A stretch of 62,145 nucleotides of DNA, the filler included, from Porpidia crustulata (Eukaryota), in the NCBI GenBank assembly GCA_964255105.1. It is 12 parts of 12 records of this genome, joined end to end, with 100 filler letters (N's around TTAATTAATTAA, not from the genome) between each part and the next. Parts side by side here need not be neighbours in the genome. Positions count along the whole stretch, not along the records: positions 15,600 to 20,697 come from CAXUWE010001909.1; 11 more parts are not named here. One strand, given 5' to 3'. Positions 14,815-20,797 of the stretch are shown in pieces. Within the stretch, counting starts at the first letter, position 1. The number at the start of each line of letters is the position of its first letter. The notes below the pieces were generated by a model. The model was not told the origin of the DNA and made no database searches. It was given only the letters and a program-made list of their open reading frames with translations. The position numbers and the translations under genes were made by a program.

Positions 14815-15499
14815 ATGGCTGGACCACTCGTTGTACCCCCGCCCCGTAAGCACCAACCATGGATAGAGCTTTCAGGATTGGGTCTCTAACCATTCGATCA
14901 GCCCCTGGAGGCCCTCAGCCTACACAGAAAACATCAGAGGTAGTTGGCACTCTGAGACCCACAAAGGTAGTCTCTTTTCCCCGGTACTTTCAATTAATAC
15001 TGACCGTCCCCAGCTCTTCAAACTCTCGAAACCAGAAACAACAGTCACATCCCTCGATTTCGATGACACGGGCGAATTTCTTCTCGCTGCCTGCTCTGAT
15101 GACTCCCTTCAGCTCTACAATGCCAAAGAAGGCAAACACATCAAAACCCTCCTTTCCCAAAAATATGGCTGCCACCTCGCCCGCTTTACCCATCACTCTC
15201 AATCCATCCTCTACGCCTCCACCAAACTCGATGACACCATCCGCTATCTCTCCACCCACGATAACCAATTCCTTCGCTACTTCAAAGGTCACTCCGCGCC
15301 TGTCACCACTATCACTCTCTGCCCCTCCAATGACACATTCCTCTCCTGCTCCCTCGACAACACTGTCCGCCTCTGGGACATCTCCACCTCGAACGCGACG
15401 GCGCGCCTAAACCTCAGCACCCCCTACCTCGCCGCTTACGACCCCTCGGCAACCGTCATCGCCATCGCCTCCGCCTCTACCGCCTCCATCCTCCTCTAC
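14815..15499 (+). CDS. SWD2: WD40 protein Swd2/WDR82 (COMPASS/CPF subunit), 3' truncated
   Basis: After splicing: VTSLDFDDTGEFLL, LLSQKYGCHLARFTH, IRYLSTHDNQFLRYFKGH, SCSLDNTVRLWD. The start is inferred from a phase-compatible gtaag..ctaac..cag intron. Confidence 0.9.
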
Positions 15500-15599
15500 N
15501 NNNNNNNNNNNNNNNNNNNNNNNNNNNNNNNNNNNNNNNNNNNTTAATTAATTAANNNNNNNNNNNNNNNNNNNNNNNNNNNNNNNNNNNNNNNNNNNN

Positions 15600-16325
15600 C
15601 TCAACAACCACACCTCCCTTCTCAGCCTTTGCAATATCCTCCTCACCAGCAAGCCTCCTCTCACCCGTCAGCGGATCCCACACCCACCCAATCCTCAACC
15701 ACCGCCAGCGCAAATACGCCCTCAATTCCTTATCGCCGGGGAGGACTCTCGCCCATTCACCCTTCATTTCCTCGGCTTTCTGATCGTCGGTCATGGTTGC
15801 GAAAGGGGGTGAAGTAGTGGGGAAGCCACGCAGATGATCGCGGCAGAAGATGCGCCAGCTGTCAATGGCGTAGGCGCCTATGCCTGGGAGATGGCCGACT
15901 TCCCATGCTACGCGCTCGTCGTCTTCGGGAATGGGTTCGTGGTCGGCGGGGATGTTTTTGCCGTTGTTGCGGCTGGGGTAGTGTAGGCGGCGGTATCTTT
16001 TCCCGATTGTGGGCGGGTCAGTAAGCCACGCTTTAGCAAGGGCGATACATTTTCTCGCCCTCTGATTTTGTAGCCCTAGGTGCTGGAAAAACTCAACGAT
16101 ATCCTCGAGCTCTGCTGAAGCGAGGGCTTGGGGAGTGGGGTAACGGGTCATGAGGGCGTGGTAGACGGGCATTGCCACGGCACCGCGGGTTTTGTTGAGG
16201 AATATAACGGCGATGAAGAGAGCGAATGGGGTATGTTGGAGGGATTCTTGGACAAGGCCAAAGGTTGGGGATGAGAGTGGGGGGAAAGGAATGAAGGAGA
16301 CTGGGTCTTTACGACGTTTTGTGGG
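15600..16325 (-). CDS. MBD4-like HhH-GPD (G/T mismatch) DNA glycosylase domain
   Basis: IPFPPLSSPTFGLVQESL...FIAVIFLNKTRG...YPTPQAL...LGLQNQRA...GHLPGIGAYAIDSWRIFC...VLPGDKELRAYLRW (HhH motif and catalytic-Asp motif); 3' truncated. Confidence 0.9.
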
Positions 16326-16414
16326 CTATTTGGAGAAGGAGGGGGAGATNNNNNNNNNNGGTCCCAGGCCTCGCGCACACCAACGCCCCGCGCCCCCGGG
16401 TTCGCGGGCGCTTG

Positions 16415-18508
16415 TCAGCCGGCGGGCCAGATTGTTGGATGTTTGGATTTGGATTTGGAGGATCGCTTGCTCTCTTTCTGTGACGGGACTTCAGACTTTG
16501 ATTCTATTTCATCCTTAATGCCTGGCGTTGGTGTTGTTGGGAAGGCTGGACTCGAAGGTGCACTGGATAGAGGACTTGAACCTAGACTCTGATGGTGGTT
16601 TTCGTATGACGGTGTGTCCTGTCTAACTTCTGGCGGCAATATTGGGAAAACAGGACTCGAGGGAGCACTAGACAATGGACTGCTCAGATTGCTGGATGTC
16701 ATACTTGTTTCACGGGAGTCTGGCGTCAGAATTGCCAATCCTTGTCTAGGTGATCTTGGCTCCAAATTTTGAAGTGCTGGCATGGAGTCATTTATCGACG
16801 TCCCCTCATCAGCGGCGGTCACACTTGCTGAATCATCGGAGACTGAAAATCCCGCTCTCTTGAGCGTGGAAGATCCGCTGACGGTACGGGCGGTTTTGAC
16901 TTCCGCTTTCTCTTGCTAACGGCTACTCCCTCCGTAATTTCTTCCCCTCCAGAGGTTTTCTTTTTTGTTTTCTTTATCGAGGGGCCGTCCGATTTTATGT
17001 CGTTTTGCTCGTCGATTTCCATCTCTTTACGTGCTCTTACCATCTCCTTTAAATCATCCCTCATCTCCTTGCTCGCTCCCTTGACTTTCCCTTGACTGTA
17101 CAGGTCAAGTCGATTCTCGTTAGTGATGTCCCTCAAAGTCCTCACGTCTGCGTCAAACGCAGCAGATTTTTGGGCTACTTCTTCTTTTTCTTCGCCACTC
17201 TTATTGACATCTTGACCGTGTTCATGAGGATCTTGCTCAATAGATTTCAAGAAATTTTCATGCGCCTCTGCTTCGGTTTTAGGGTCGTTTGGTCCTACTG
17301 TTGATGGCGATATTATGTTCTCGGCAGCATTGTCTTCTACATTCTGGTCAATATCTTTTGCTAACTCTTCGTGCTTGATTGAGCTATCCTGTGCTACGGA
17401 GCCGCCCTTAGCTGCTAATGCGTGGTTTGGTGCTGTGTCGCCCTTTGCTTCTGAATCAGTCATTGCTGCACGCTTTCTCAACTTCTTCTGCTTTCTTATG
17501 GCTCTTCTTTCCTCCTTGCTTTTCTCTTCGTCTACTGAAAGATGCTGCACAGTAGGAGAATCCTGTGCTTCCGGCCTGAACTCTTTACCAACGTTATCCA
17601 TTCTCACATTCAATTGCTCTACTTTGGCCGTTTTGCCGGAGTCTTTGGTGGGGCTTCTTTTCCGCTTTTGAGATTTCTTCTTGGGCTCACTAAAATTGGT
17701 ATCGGAGGGGCCGGCTTGAACTTGTTCAGCTGATCTCATATTTACAACGTCCGTTGTCCCAGTTGAAGGCGCGTCCTTGATCCACGTGGACGAAGTGGTG
17801 TTTGTTGCAGATAAGCTTTGCATGACCGTGTTTGCGTCGTCAACTTCGTCCCCTAGAGCAGAATTCTCGCTATCATATTCCTCTTCGCCACACATCCCTC
17901 GAGCCCTGATTATCTGCACATTTGCTTGCGCCTTCGTGAGATCTTGAGCCCGCGCAAAGTCGTAGATATCTCGCTCAAACTTCCTGCGCTCTGACGAGGT
18001 GTACTGAGAGAGAGATTGCTGAGTGAAGAAGGAGTGACGCCGGACAAAATGGTTTATTAATTGGCTCAATCGGGTGGATATGGTAGTGGGTTTAGATGCG
18101 CCCATGGCTGCTGTGTAGAGTATCAATTTGGTTTTCAGTCTGGTTCTAAATTACCATCGGAAGGCTCAACGAACCTTGTCCCTGATTCGCAGTAGGCAGT
18201 AATTCTACAGGTGTTGAATCAACATCCGTAAGCTTCTGGCCAGCAGGAGCAAGTTGCGACCAGAAAAGAAGCTCCTCCTGACTAACGTCCTTGACATCAA
18301 AGTCATCATACAGATTTGACTCGTCTTCATCGTCCGGCACGCAAGTCCCATGTGCCTTCGATAGAAAATCGATTCGCCGGCCTGGCTTCAACTCGGCTCT
18401 TAATCTCTGCACTGATCCGTTCTGATTGCTTACGGAGCGACTAAGTTGACTTGGCTTGCTAAGTGGAGGCGGTTTAGTAGGCGCAGCTTTGACTGGGTCG
18501 CCTACCAT
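16415..18508 (-). CDS. Long N-terminal region, probably of the same MBD4-like gene (frame change near 16850)
   Basis: ORF 18508-18146 can join ORF 18126-16819 through a phase-1 intron (caag|gttcgt..tacacag). That frame ends DFQSPMIQQV*, and the -1 frame continues as a Ser/Pro-rich ORF to the 10-N gap (16350-16359) just upstream of the glycosylase domain. Confidence 0.6.
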
Positions 18509-19758
18509 GTTTTCTCCAAGGTATGCTTAGTCCAGTCACGGGAGATGATAAATTGATCATGAACACAGTGGAAATTAAGGGTCTAACGAAAGAAAATTAC
18601 ACGATATTTTATAGGAAATGTTCTCGTCTAGATTCGTAGGGTTCATATTGCTGGCGCGACGAAGACACGCGACAGACGCGCGGGAGACGCGGATAGAGGA
18701 ATATTCAACTTGATACCATGGTCTCGATACGGATTTGGAAATCCAAAAGGGAGCTGATGTCATTGGGCGGTCGCAAGCCCACTGAAGATGGCTGCCAGAG
18801 TCGGCTGTGGTATTACTCTATGAAGGAACATCACATACAGAATTGCGACATTGCGACATGGCGATGTGACTACATATTAAAGCACTTGATGATTTATCTC
18901 ACCTCTTCACACGGACTCTTTATCCCCGTCCTCGTTCTTGCTGTGTTGGCATACCAGCACCCCATGGTGCTGATTTCCTTGGGTTGGTAATTTCCGGCCC
19001 TACCAGGCTAGCCTTACCCAGCTAGCCCTATCACATTCGCTTATTTAGCGCTAGTGGGACTGCAGAGTTTTACCTCTCCAGACCCCCTTTCGTACATACC
19101 ATCTGCATCAATATAAACCACATGTATGATCACCATAATAAATGCTTCATGTTGGCCAATTGCCTAATTGCTGCCACCTGATTCGCCAACATGCTGAACA
19201 AGGTTGTCTCAATCGAGGACAAGGATAAGAACCCCCTCTGCCTGCTAGGGTCTACATCTCGCGCGTCTGCTTCTGAATAAGAACCTTGATATCTTCGTTT
19301 CAATTCGAAAGAAACGGAATGAGACTATTTTAGAAGAGGAGATAGGAGAACCAAAAGCGCCGCAAGAGCTGATCTAAGATCAATGAATTATCATAGCAAG
19401 TAAGGTCTTCAGGATAACTGTGAGCCTAGAGTCCATCGAGAAGCCCTTAATCACACAAGAGACTGTAGTCTCTTTTGCGCATCCTTGGTAGTTAGTCAAA
19501 GAAACAATTTGTTCTTCTAGATTCTAGGCCATCAGACTTGGGATCCTTTACGCATCATCGACTCCACTCCCCTCAAATCAATATGTATCAAGCGACGTCT
19601 TAGAAGGGAACATTATTTGTGCCTTCCCTACTCTTATGTTATATATTTTTGTAGAGGGGCAAATTTCTCGCAAAGATAGCACATGTCGTTATACGCACTG
19701 CTCAGAAGCTTGTCAGCAACAATTCAAATCACTTGTACTCGACCGAGAATACTAACGT

Positions 19759-20480
19759 CTATCGCGTAATCTCCCCCGGGTATCCGCCCGAGTAATTGAG
19801 GTTATATTTCAAGCAATTGCGATCATCCCATTCCTGTATCGGCTCCGCGGCTTCATAGTTTTCCATGTAACTTCGTGAGTACACCTCTGCCTGAAAGATT
19901 TGACCCCATTGACATCTCCAGATACCGTGTTCCATTTCGTTGTGAGCATAGTATGATTCAGCATCGTAAAGAACCACGTCACCCGCCTCAAGCAGAGTGC
20001 CGAAATTACCTAGAAGTACAAGATCAGTACCCATGATAACGCAAGAGACTTTTAGCGACTGACCTTCCCAGCAGTCTCCATGGATCAAGCTAGGTTTTAG
20101 TTTGCGGCCATCGGCCTGTAGAATACCCAGCAGCCGCGGGAAAACACCAACAACGACCTGACCAGCTGCAGCCTCTAGCTTGAGTCATACCCCATTTACT
20201 TCTGTGTCGGGCTTGAGAACGCCGCGAAGAAGCTTGCCAAAGAAAGTCGCCCAACTCTTTTGCCAAGCTACAGTGTGCGGTGACTTGCCATCGCACGCCG
20301 TTACTTCGAACCCAAACATACCGTTCCACGAGCTGCTCAATCGAAGCAACTCGGCGACCCGCGCAGTGAACTTTGCTGGCTCAGGCGTCGACACATGTTG
20401 AGGAAATCAGACAAGAATAAGTACGTGTCTGGAGAACCAACTTTGTATTTTCCTCACCCATCCGGCACAGGTACCTGTCC
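19759..20480 (-). pseudogene. Fructosamine/ribulosamine 3-kinase pseudogene
   Basis: G*GKYKVGSPDTYLFLSDFL, FGFEVTACDG, WQKSWATFF, NGV*LKLE, LKPSLIHGDCWEG|N, YDAESYYAHNEME, EWDDRN. In-frame TGA at 20454-20456 and 20185-20187, plus a frameshift near 20395. Confidence 0.85.
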
Positions 20481-20797
20481 AGGTAGGAGGGAATGAATAT
20501 TTGTCATTGACGTGAGCTCTGCGAGCATCCTTATCTTGCTATGATCCTCGCTCGCACACTGGATGTCGAATTATTCTCAGATATGATCACCGATGTTAAG
20601 AATAAGGTTCGAGGATCACAGACCTTAAGGAAATATAGTTGAAGTTTGTTGAAAACAGAGCATCTAGGTCCTACGACTAGGTGTTCGGGGTGCTTACNNN
20701 NNNNNNNNNNNNNNNNNNNNNNNNNNNNNNNNNNNNNNNNNTTAATTAATTAANNNNNNNNNNNNNNNNNNNNNNNNNNNNNNNNNNNNNNNNNNNN

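Follow-up and report, generated by a model that had tools for sequence, protein, structure and literature searches.

A probable programmed -1 ribosomal frameshift in an MBD4-like DNA glycosylase gene of Porpidia crustulata and other fungi

Gene layout and slip site in Porpidia crustulata

We analyzed an MBD4-like DNA glycosylase gene on the minus strand of a stretch of Porpidia crustulata DNA (assembly GCA_964255105.1), in which an N-terminal protein and the catalytic domain are encoded in two overlapping reading frames that are probably bridged by programmed -1 ribosomal frameshifting (PRF). The whole stretch, hereafter the window, is 62,145 nucleotides (nt) long including filler and joins 12 parts of 12 records that are not necessarily neighbors in the genome. 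Positions 15,600 to 20,697 of the window, where the gene is located, correspond to CAXUWE010001909.1.

The first open reading frame (ORF1) would begin with an exon at 18175..18508 (ATG at 18508-18506), deduced from the sequence alone, that ends in phase 1 before GTTCGT. The ORF around it (18146..18526) was homologous to the N-terminus of P0122 in a protein comparison. By frame arithmetic, a 64-nt intron at 18111..18174 (GTTCGT...CACAG) would join this exon in phase to the long zero-frame ORF, whose second exon (16819..18110) ends in RDFQSPMIQQV and a TGA at 16821-16819, as an earlier note on this DNA had read it. Counted from stop to stop, the zero-frame ORF extends over 18150..16819 and 443 codons, or 428 amino acids (aa) when counted from the ATG at 18105.

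Close to the end of ORF1 lies the slip heptamer GGATTTT (16852-16846, minus strand), which the sequence and the orthologous heptamers place in zero-frame phase as G_GAT_TTT, or G_GAU_UUU in the RNA. The earlier note had described it as an X_XXY_YYZ heptamer; the phase was correct, but the strict pattern does not hold, although G_GAU_UUU is a documented slip site. Its use as a working viral slip site, also claimed there, is documented for pea enation mosaic virus (PMC5009743) and, as GGAUUUU, for the yeast L-BC virus (PMC8780742). The related G_GGU_UUU is counted with the heptamers most prone to shifting (PMC5009743).

In the zero frame, a stop follows 10 codons past the heptamer. From 16915 on, the -1 frame is free of stops up to a TGA at 16417-16415, 145 codons beyond the heptamer. 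The open length of about 145 codons given in the earlier note was therefore correct, but the glycosylase domain, towards which this frame was said to run, is not reached cleanly in the assembly. The start of the second frame (ORF2, 16429..16852, minus strand) encodes GFSVSDDSASVTAADEG and then a Ser/Pro-rich linker, and is colinear with the orthologous glycosylase proteins up to ...KHPTI. Further downstream, an MBD4-type HhH-GPD glycosylase domain of 242 codons (15600..16325, minus strand) was assigned from Pfam and PDB matches; its 3' end meets runs of N.

A second in-phase slippery heptamer, A_AAA_AAG, was observed at 16960-16966 (minus strand) within the lysine-rich part of ORF1. A slip at this site would give a short dead-end tail, as the -1 frame there ends at a TAG (16918-16916).

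Domains of the two encoded parts

The glycosylase ORF matched Pfam family PF00730 with an E-value of 1.3e-08, above the family cut-off, and 15 distinct MBD4 chains in the PDB with E-values of 6e-18 to 5e-17. Its segment LPGIGAYAIDSWRIFC aligned to the helix-hairpin-helix segment of MBD4, LHGIGKYGNDSYRIFC of 4dk9, and the Asp after this segment is presumably the catalytic residue. As in MBD4, the HhH-GPD domain is C-terminal and a long disordered linker separates it from an N-terminal module. Unlike MBD4, the gene has its N-terminal part and its glycosylase in different reading frames, and no N-terminal methyl-CpG-binding domain was detected, with no Pfam family on ORF1 or the upstream exon at E<=0.1; a small helical bundle without a Pfam family or a convincing fold match stands in its place. 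By these comparisons, the gene is MBD4-like in its glycosylase domain only.

From its N-terminus, ORF1 comprises a conserved helical domain, a charged linker that is disordered, and a helical segment. In the AlphaFold model of ORF1, the confidence score (pLDDT) was about 90 at residues 10-105, which form the helical bundle, and at residues 300-370, which form long helices. Searches for structural relatives of this model gave unconvincing best hits (Z of 5.7 with VIA-align, E of 0.7 with Foldseek), and the ESM Atlas gave no usable match for ORF1. Neither ORF1 nor the glycosylase gene showed similarity to viral or transposon proteins in Pfam.

Conservation of the frame break

With the 428-aa ORF1 as query, 157 homologues were found at E<=0.001. 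In 79 of the 262 proteins collected (P numbers), the C-terminus reads x-[D47/G27/H2/R/C/S]-F-x-x-P-M-[I/K], followed by 0-4 further residues. Of the glycosylase-side proteins, 88 are below 700 aa in length; the N-terminus of 62 of these lies at M-T-A-A-[DV]-E or at most 7 residues upstream of it, and 13 more start with close variants of this motif. The hits with names belong to two subclasses of Lecanoromycetes. P0001 and P0002, which are 78% and 76% identical to Porpidia crustulata in the glycosylase domain, begin M(SM)TAADEG. In the 79 ORF1 homologues, the residue before the Phe was never one without an NNT codon (0 observed, 24.9 expected from local composition), and the residue two before the Phe was never one without an NNG codon (0 observed, 14.8 expected); the nominal probabilities of these counts overstate their significance because the 79 sequences are related.

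At the DNA level, one metagenome scan with full-length alignment yielded 17 loci (L numbers), 15 of which hold the junction, while L003 and L004 lack the upstream region. Ten of the 15 are broken (L007, the mutually identical L008-L011, L012, L014, L015, L016, and L017) and represent 7 distinct sequences from about 6 lineages. In these ten loci the frame switch is always -1. The open part of ORF1 upstream spans 204-812 codons, and the zero-frame stop lies 2-10 codons past the heptamer. The opening of the -1 frame lies 2-43 codons ahead of the heptamer, and this frame continues into the glycosylase for 260-443 codons. When P0061 was aligned by tblastn, the match passed from frame 2 to frame 1 at 5947-5995 of L008, and from frame 3 to frame 2 at 965-983 of L017. 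Downstream differences between L008 and L017 numbered 31, 31, and 86 at the three codon positions and were thus biased to the third; for such counts, the L014/L015 pair was too similar and the upstream linkers were too divergent to align.

All broken loci carry a heptamer in phase: G_GGU_UUU in L007, L008-L011, L016, and L017, G_GAU_UUC in L012, and G_CAU_UUU in L014 and L015. All 7 distinct broken sequences and Porpidia crustulata have a G at the end of the codon that precedes the heptamer's second base, even though this codon encodes R, P, Q, E, T, or S. The alignment of orthologues that the earlier note had proposed hence finds the slippery heptamer, the short zero-frame ending and the -1 relation conserved in about 6 DNA lineages. 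The same note had allowed for an indel error, which is not the cause, as the break is also present in 79 protein cluster representatives, in 10 of the 15 junction-containing metagenome loci and in a second assembly of the Porpidia crustulata DNA. On this comparative evidence, the frame break is an inherited feature of the gene and not an assembly error.

Position of the shift and fused lineages

Two of the broken loci delimit the site of the shift. In L016 the -1 frame opens just 2 codons before the heptamer, and in L012 a zero-frame TGA directly follows the Phe codon of the heptamer. Therefore, the shift lies between 2 codons before the heptamer and the Phe codon, an interval of about four codons. 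Both loci keep CCGATGAT behind a zero-frame stop, from which it follows that the PMI(Q) motif of the zero frame is a by-product of the -1 frame. The GAT-to-GAA change in L007 is conservative in the -1 frame and radical in the zero frame. Moreover, the GT that follows PMIQ belongs to a Val codon of the -1 frame that varies between GTA, GTG, and GTC, and it is absent in L007.

The remaining 5 of the 15 junction loci are continuous (L001, L002, L005, L006, and L013). In L001 and L013, GGGTTTT is intact and one extra base precedes AATGAT, and L002 is similar. In L005 and L006 a T of the run has been lost, and both are 100% identical in one frame to P0061 (778 aa). A further group of proteins (P0101, P0104, P0111, P0116, P0117, and P0204) reads unbroken through ...GFP(N/H)PNDSVG(M/V)TAADEG. 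At least two indel solutions thus arose next to the slip site. The residue spacing of the fused proteins is exactly that of the -1 product of the broken genes, which argues that the fusion protein is the conserved functional unit. Continuous orthologues had been named in the earlier note as evidence that would speak against recoding. They do exist (L001/L002/L013, L005/L006, P0061, and the P0101 group), but they are a minority and colinear with the -1 product, and therefore locate the shift rather than refute it.

The fused loci also differ in what is left of the cassette. L001 (at 7302) and L002 (at 6977) retain the hairpin described below and a T run despite the fusion. In L005 (at 5717) the T run is lost, the stem contains a C-U mismatch, and the hairpin fold is gone. 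This loss, seen in one lineage, would fit a relaxed constraint after fusion.

The downstream RNA hairpin

The 58 nt from the heptamer on were 72% identical between lineages, compared with 28% upstream and 34% downstream. In Porpidia crustulata, a two-tier hairpin is predicted within this island at 16800..16843 (minus strand) by the minimum free energy (MFE) fold, the centroid fold and the RNAalifold consensus. Both stems proposed in the earlier note (16843-16838 with 16805-16800, and 16831-16827 with 16813-16809) were present in the MFE and centroid folds, and the 2-nt spacer between heptamer and hairpin was as stated there for the outer stem. The 51-nt core of the Porpidia crustulata hairpin had a predicted energy of -16.6 kcal/mol. 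In the RNAalifold consensus, the conserved part of the outer stem consists of the CC/GG pairs and one more pair, and the inner stem pairs 16831-16823 with 16816-16809 around the loop GUGACC (16822-17). No Rfam family was detected in 16600-17000 at E<=1.

Over 10 sequences, 94% of the cells of the hairpin were paired, compared with 87.9% in shuffled alignments (0 of 500 shuffles reached the observed value), and pairing fell to 22-65% when the partners were slid against each other. Three pairs of the inner stem have changed on both sides: one is AU in five sequences, UA in four and GC in one, another is GC in nine and CG in one, and the third is CG in eight, UA in one and UG in one. At the first of these pairs, the U-A, A-U, and G-C combinations come from non-synonymous changes, with Ser/Asp, Thr or Ile/Val, and Ala/Ala encoded by the two arms. 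Among 18 proteins with the junction motif F..[DN]D...E, 17 combine Ser with Asp and one combines Ser with Glu.

The UGAC of the loop (16821-16818) can also pair with a downstream GUCR, which is GUCG at 16796..16799 (minus strand) in Porpidia crustulata, and 90% of the cells of this helix were paired. The G before UCA/UCG in GUCR is the wobble base of different codons. The helix shows no covariation because two of its four pairs never vary. These observations tentatively suggest a weakly supported pseudoknot between the loop and the GUCR.

Frameshifting as the proposed mechanism

We propose that one mRNA carries both overlapping reading frames and that ribosomes would first translate ORF1. At G_GAU_UUU, a fraction of them would slip back by one base, aided by the conserved hairpin and possibly by a pseudoknot beginning 2-5 nt downstream. 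Ribosomes that slip would continue from the zero-frame ...RDF into SVSDDS..., the linker and the MBD4-type glycosylase domain, while the others would terminate 10 codons further on and yield a non-catalytic ORF1 protein. The suggestion in the earlier note, that one gene makes a short non-catalytic protein and a full-length glycosylase, is supported by the comparison in that the heptamer, the hairpin and the short zero-frame tail are conserved. We consider programmed -1 frameshifting at the heptamer to be the best explanation of these sequence data and a probable one. The bridging of the two frames is attributed here by inference to the ribosome rather than to splicing, editing or a second initiation; some efficiency of shifting and any function of the short product are likewise presumed. 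A broader reading, to which we lean with somewhat more reserve, is that an ancient -1 PRF under selection sets the ratio of the N-terminal protein to the full-length glycosylase in Lecanoromycetes and probably in other Pezizomycotina. Under this reading, the shift would use viral-type heptamers and a covarying hairpin/pseudoknot stem kept by coordinated amino-acid changes, and several lineages would independently have hard-wired the fusion by an indel at the site or beside it.

Several observations weigh against frameshifting at this site. Part of the nucleotide conservation of the island is protein-driven because the island also encodes a conserved peptide, and the covariation was assessed over just about 6 independent DNA lineages. 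The stability of the fold is ordinary, with z-scores of about 0 in 93-nt windows and -0.3 to -1.4 for the 51-nt core, and it is not uniform across loci, as the MFE structure of L017 is a different fold and L016 forms the inner stem only. The spacer is atypical: compared with the 5-9 nt expected of a -1 PRF cassette, it measures 2 nt if counted to the outer stem, 5 nt if counted to the CC/GG pairs that are conserved, and 14 nt if counted to the inner stem, which is well supported. The G_CAU_UUU of L014/L015 permits almost no re-pairing in the P site. It is clear from the fused lineages that at least some fungi can do without the short product. In Porpidia crustulata itself, ORF2 and the glycosylase are separated by an unsupported assembly gap and a TAG that is unverified, and the local copy could be damaged. 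Finally, in 5 of the 7 broken DNA sequences the hairpin loop contains an ATG 0-25 nt beyond the stop of ORF1, an arrangement that also suits reinitiation.

Initiation within the hairpin loop

The last of these points leads to the rival that survives best, although we regard it as unlikely: two separate proteins would be made and never fused, the glycosylase ORF starting at the AUG, GUG, or UUG of the loop ((M/V/L)TAADEG) by termination-reinitiation or from an internal transcript. The ORF1 stop indeed lies 0-25 nt upstream of the loop start codon or overlaps it (as AUGA in sequences of the window type and in L007), the loop codon is ATG in L007, L008, L012, L014, and L017, and gene callers begin the downstream protein at this codon in most species. 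However, the codon is GTG in Porpidia crustulata and TTG in L016, and encodes Val in P0203, P0214, P0219, and P0235. Reinitiation would also leave unexplained the presence of a heptamer in phase whose wobble G and T are conserved, the -1 frame that is open from the heptamer on in every lineage, and the residues from the Phe to the loop codon, which are kept in the fused lineages. In addition, eukaryotic ribosomes are not expected to reinitiate past an ORF of 400-800 codons unless a special element helps them.

Introns, editing and transcriptional slippage

It is also improbable, in our view, that the frame is restored in the mRNA by an unrecognized lineage-specific intron, by RNA editing or by transcriptional slippage. 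A GT/GC-AG scan found no positionally conserved candidate intron of 3n+2 length, and the earlier note had seen no short frame-restoring intron with a consensus branch point. Candidates do exist locally, namely a 137-nt GC-AG intron in Porpidia crustulata with the donor GCAAGT at 16828 and a branch-like site, and GT[AG]AG[CT]-like hexamers at +24 in Porpidia crustulata, L008, and L017, but none is conserved in position, and L007 has no GT at the +24 site. The zero-frame stops of L012 and L016, at +7 and +10 nt from the start of the heptamer, come before the shared GT at +24, and any such intron, the 137-nt candidate included, would remove the conserved SDDS..TAADEG block, which is translated in the fused lineages. 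A run of 3-4 T (3 in L012) is too short for known polymerase slippage. A splice donor directly after PMIQ, by which the Q/R/L-plus-stop endings would be read as xxG|GTRAGT, was considered separately and rejected because the DNA has GTC and GCT there and zero-frame stops lie upstream.

Annotation pipelines have placed introns at the junction (P0039, P0054, and P0113), but the gene models are mutually inconsistent at this point, with P0039, P0054, P0113, and P0118 on one side and P0069, P0071, and P0081 on the other. Some models end the zero frame in PMIQ and then skip the TAADEG block, some jump into the -1 frame upstream, and others split the gene. It looks as if pipelines invent introns to bridge a frameshift. 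Given such inconsistent or split models, many fungal annotations of the glycosylase gene are probably wrong.

Reliability of the local assembly

The second assembly consists of contigs from the sole public run carrying this DNA, which is probably the source sample. Of two further runs compared, one gave no matching sequence and the other gave two short fragments of the glycosylase domain at less than 90% identity. Its contigs matched 16428-18600 and 15614-16246 with zero differences, and the junction sequence is therefore reproducible. Positions 16247-16427 had no cover, and one contig stops exactly at 16428, where a GC-rich stretch begins. This stretch (16428-16360, 69 nt), flanked by repeated ATCT, adjoins a 10-N scaffold gap (16359-16350). 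The two together (16350..16428, minus strand) hold the TGA at 16417-16415 and are without counterpart in the orthologues, the proteins of which run straight across this position in the alignment; they are probably an assembly artefact. Past the gap, the sequence is again colinear with the orthologues over ISPSFSK (16326..16349 including the stop, minus strand) and then meets an in-frame TAG (16328-16326), where orthologues have Ser or Pro. This TAG is either a wrong base call or a real nonsense codon.

That the Porpidia crustulata copy is a decaying pseudogene or a mis-assembled locus, in which the break has no function, is very unlikely: a draft scaffold of low depth (about 7-10) and the GC-rich stretch, gap and TAG between ORF2 and the glycosylase would suit such a view, but the break lies at an ancestral conserved position with heptamer and hairpin intact, no other interruption affects the 443 codons of ORF1 or the 242 codons of the glycosylase domain, which is 78% identical to P0001, and the second assembly reproduces the junction without difference.

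Comparison with known recoding systems

Cellular genes of eukaryotes very rarely show conserved -1 frameshifting, and several of the cases put forward are contested. By analogy, the closest cellular precedent would be PaYIP3, which encodes a Rab-GDI displacement factor in Podospora anserina and other Pezizomycotina (PMC3777964). PaYIP3 has a -1 frameshift that is conserved in Pezizomycotina, with a pseudoknot 2 nt after the site (PMC3777964, PMC5009743); a predicted structured element likewise begins 2 nt after the shift site in Porpidia crustulata. As described in these sources, this ordinary nuclear gene has no transposon origin. One PaYIP3 mRNA gives both a short product of the zero frame and a longer one fused through the -1 frame, as is proposed here, and the arrangement has been conserved over long evolutionary distances, with some clades having changed the frame relation. 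In contrast, PaYIP3 slips on the non-canonical U_UUU_UCC, whereas the glycosylase heptamers are canonical or proven in viruses. Its extension is a poorly conserved tail, whereas the -1 frame of the glycosylase gene carries the catalytic domain. Frameshifting in PaYIP3 has been shown experimentally, while the glycosylase case is supported by sequence comparison.

The viral cassettes of pea enation mosaic virus 2 and the L-BC totivirus share with the glycosylase gene the same heptamers and phase as well as a downstream RNA structure, which in the glycosylase gene is predicted. In pea enation mosaic virus 2, the zero-frame stop is also close to the site, similar to L012 and L016, where it is adjacent or 3 nt away, and L-BC shows that fungal ribosomes use GGAUUUU (PMC8780742). 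Unlike these cassettes, the glycosylase gene is cellular and chromosomal, and its hairpin is only moderately stable. The mammalian genes PEG10 and PNMA, which descend from a retrotransposon gag-pol and have inherited its frameshifting, are similar as eukaryotic nuclear genes in which a conserved -1 PRF yields both a short product and a fused one, but no gag-pol ancestry is visible in the glycosylase gene. The -1 PRF of PEG10 and of PNMA (Ma3) is named in PMC3777964.

In the literature excerpts available to us, no paper was found that ties an MBD4-type glycosylase to frameshifting; the list of 14 frameshift/read-through candidates in the Podospora genome paper (PMC2441463) was left uncompared. 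If the proposal is true, the gene would join a single earlier example of a conserved -1 PRF among fungal nuclear genes without transposon ancestry. Its product would also be the first eukaryotic DNA-repair enzyme whose catalytic domain depends on recoding. The dosage of a DNA-repair or demethylation-type glycosylase would then be tied to translational recoding. Natural controls for this system are at hand in dozens of species with a broken gene and in fused sister lineages, and the compact 60-nt cassette is suited to direct use in reporters.

Neighboring features of the window

The window contains 22 runs of 44 N, arranged in pairs about 5.19 kb apart (e.g., 15500-15543 and 15556-15599), which look like masking and not like assembly gaps. 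One of these paired runs covers the 3' end of the glycosylase gene. On the plus strand, 14867-15499 holds an open frame with WD40 repeats (PF00400, E of 2e-16), which faces the glycosylase gene's 3' end in convergent orientation.

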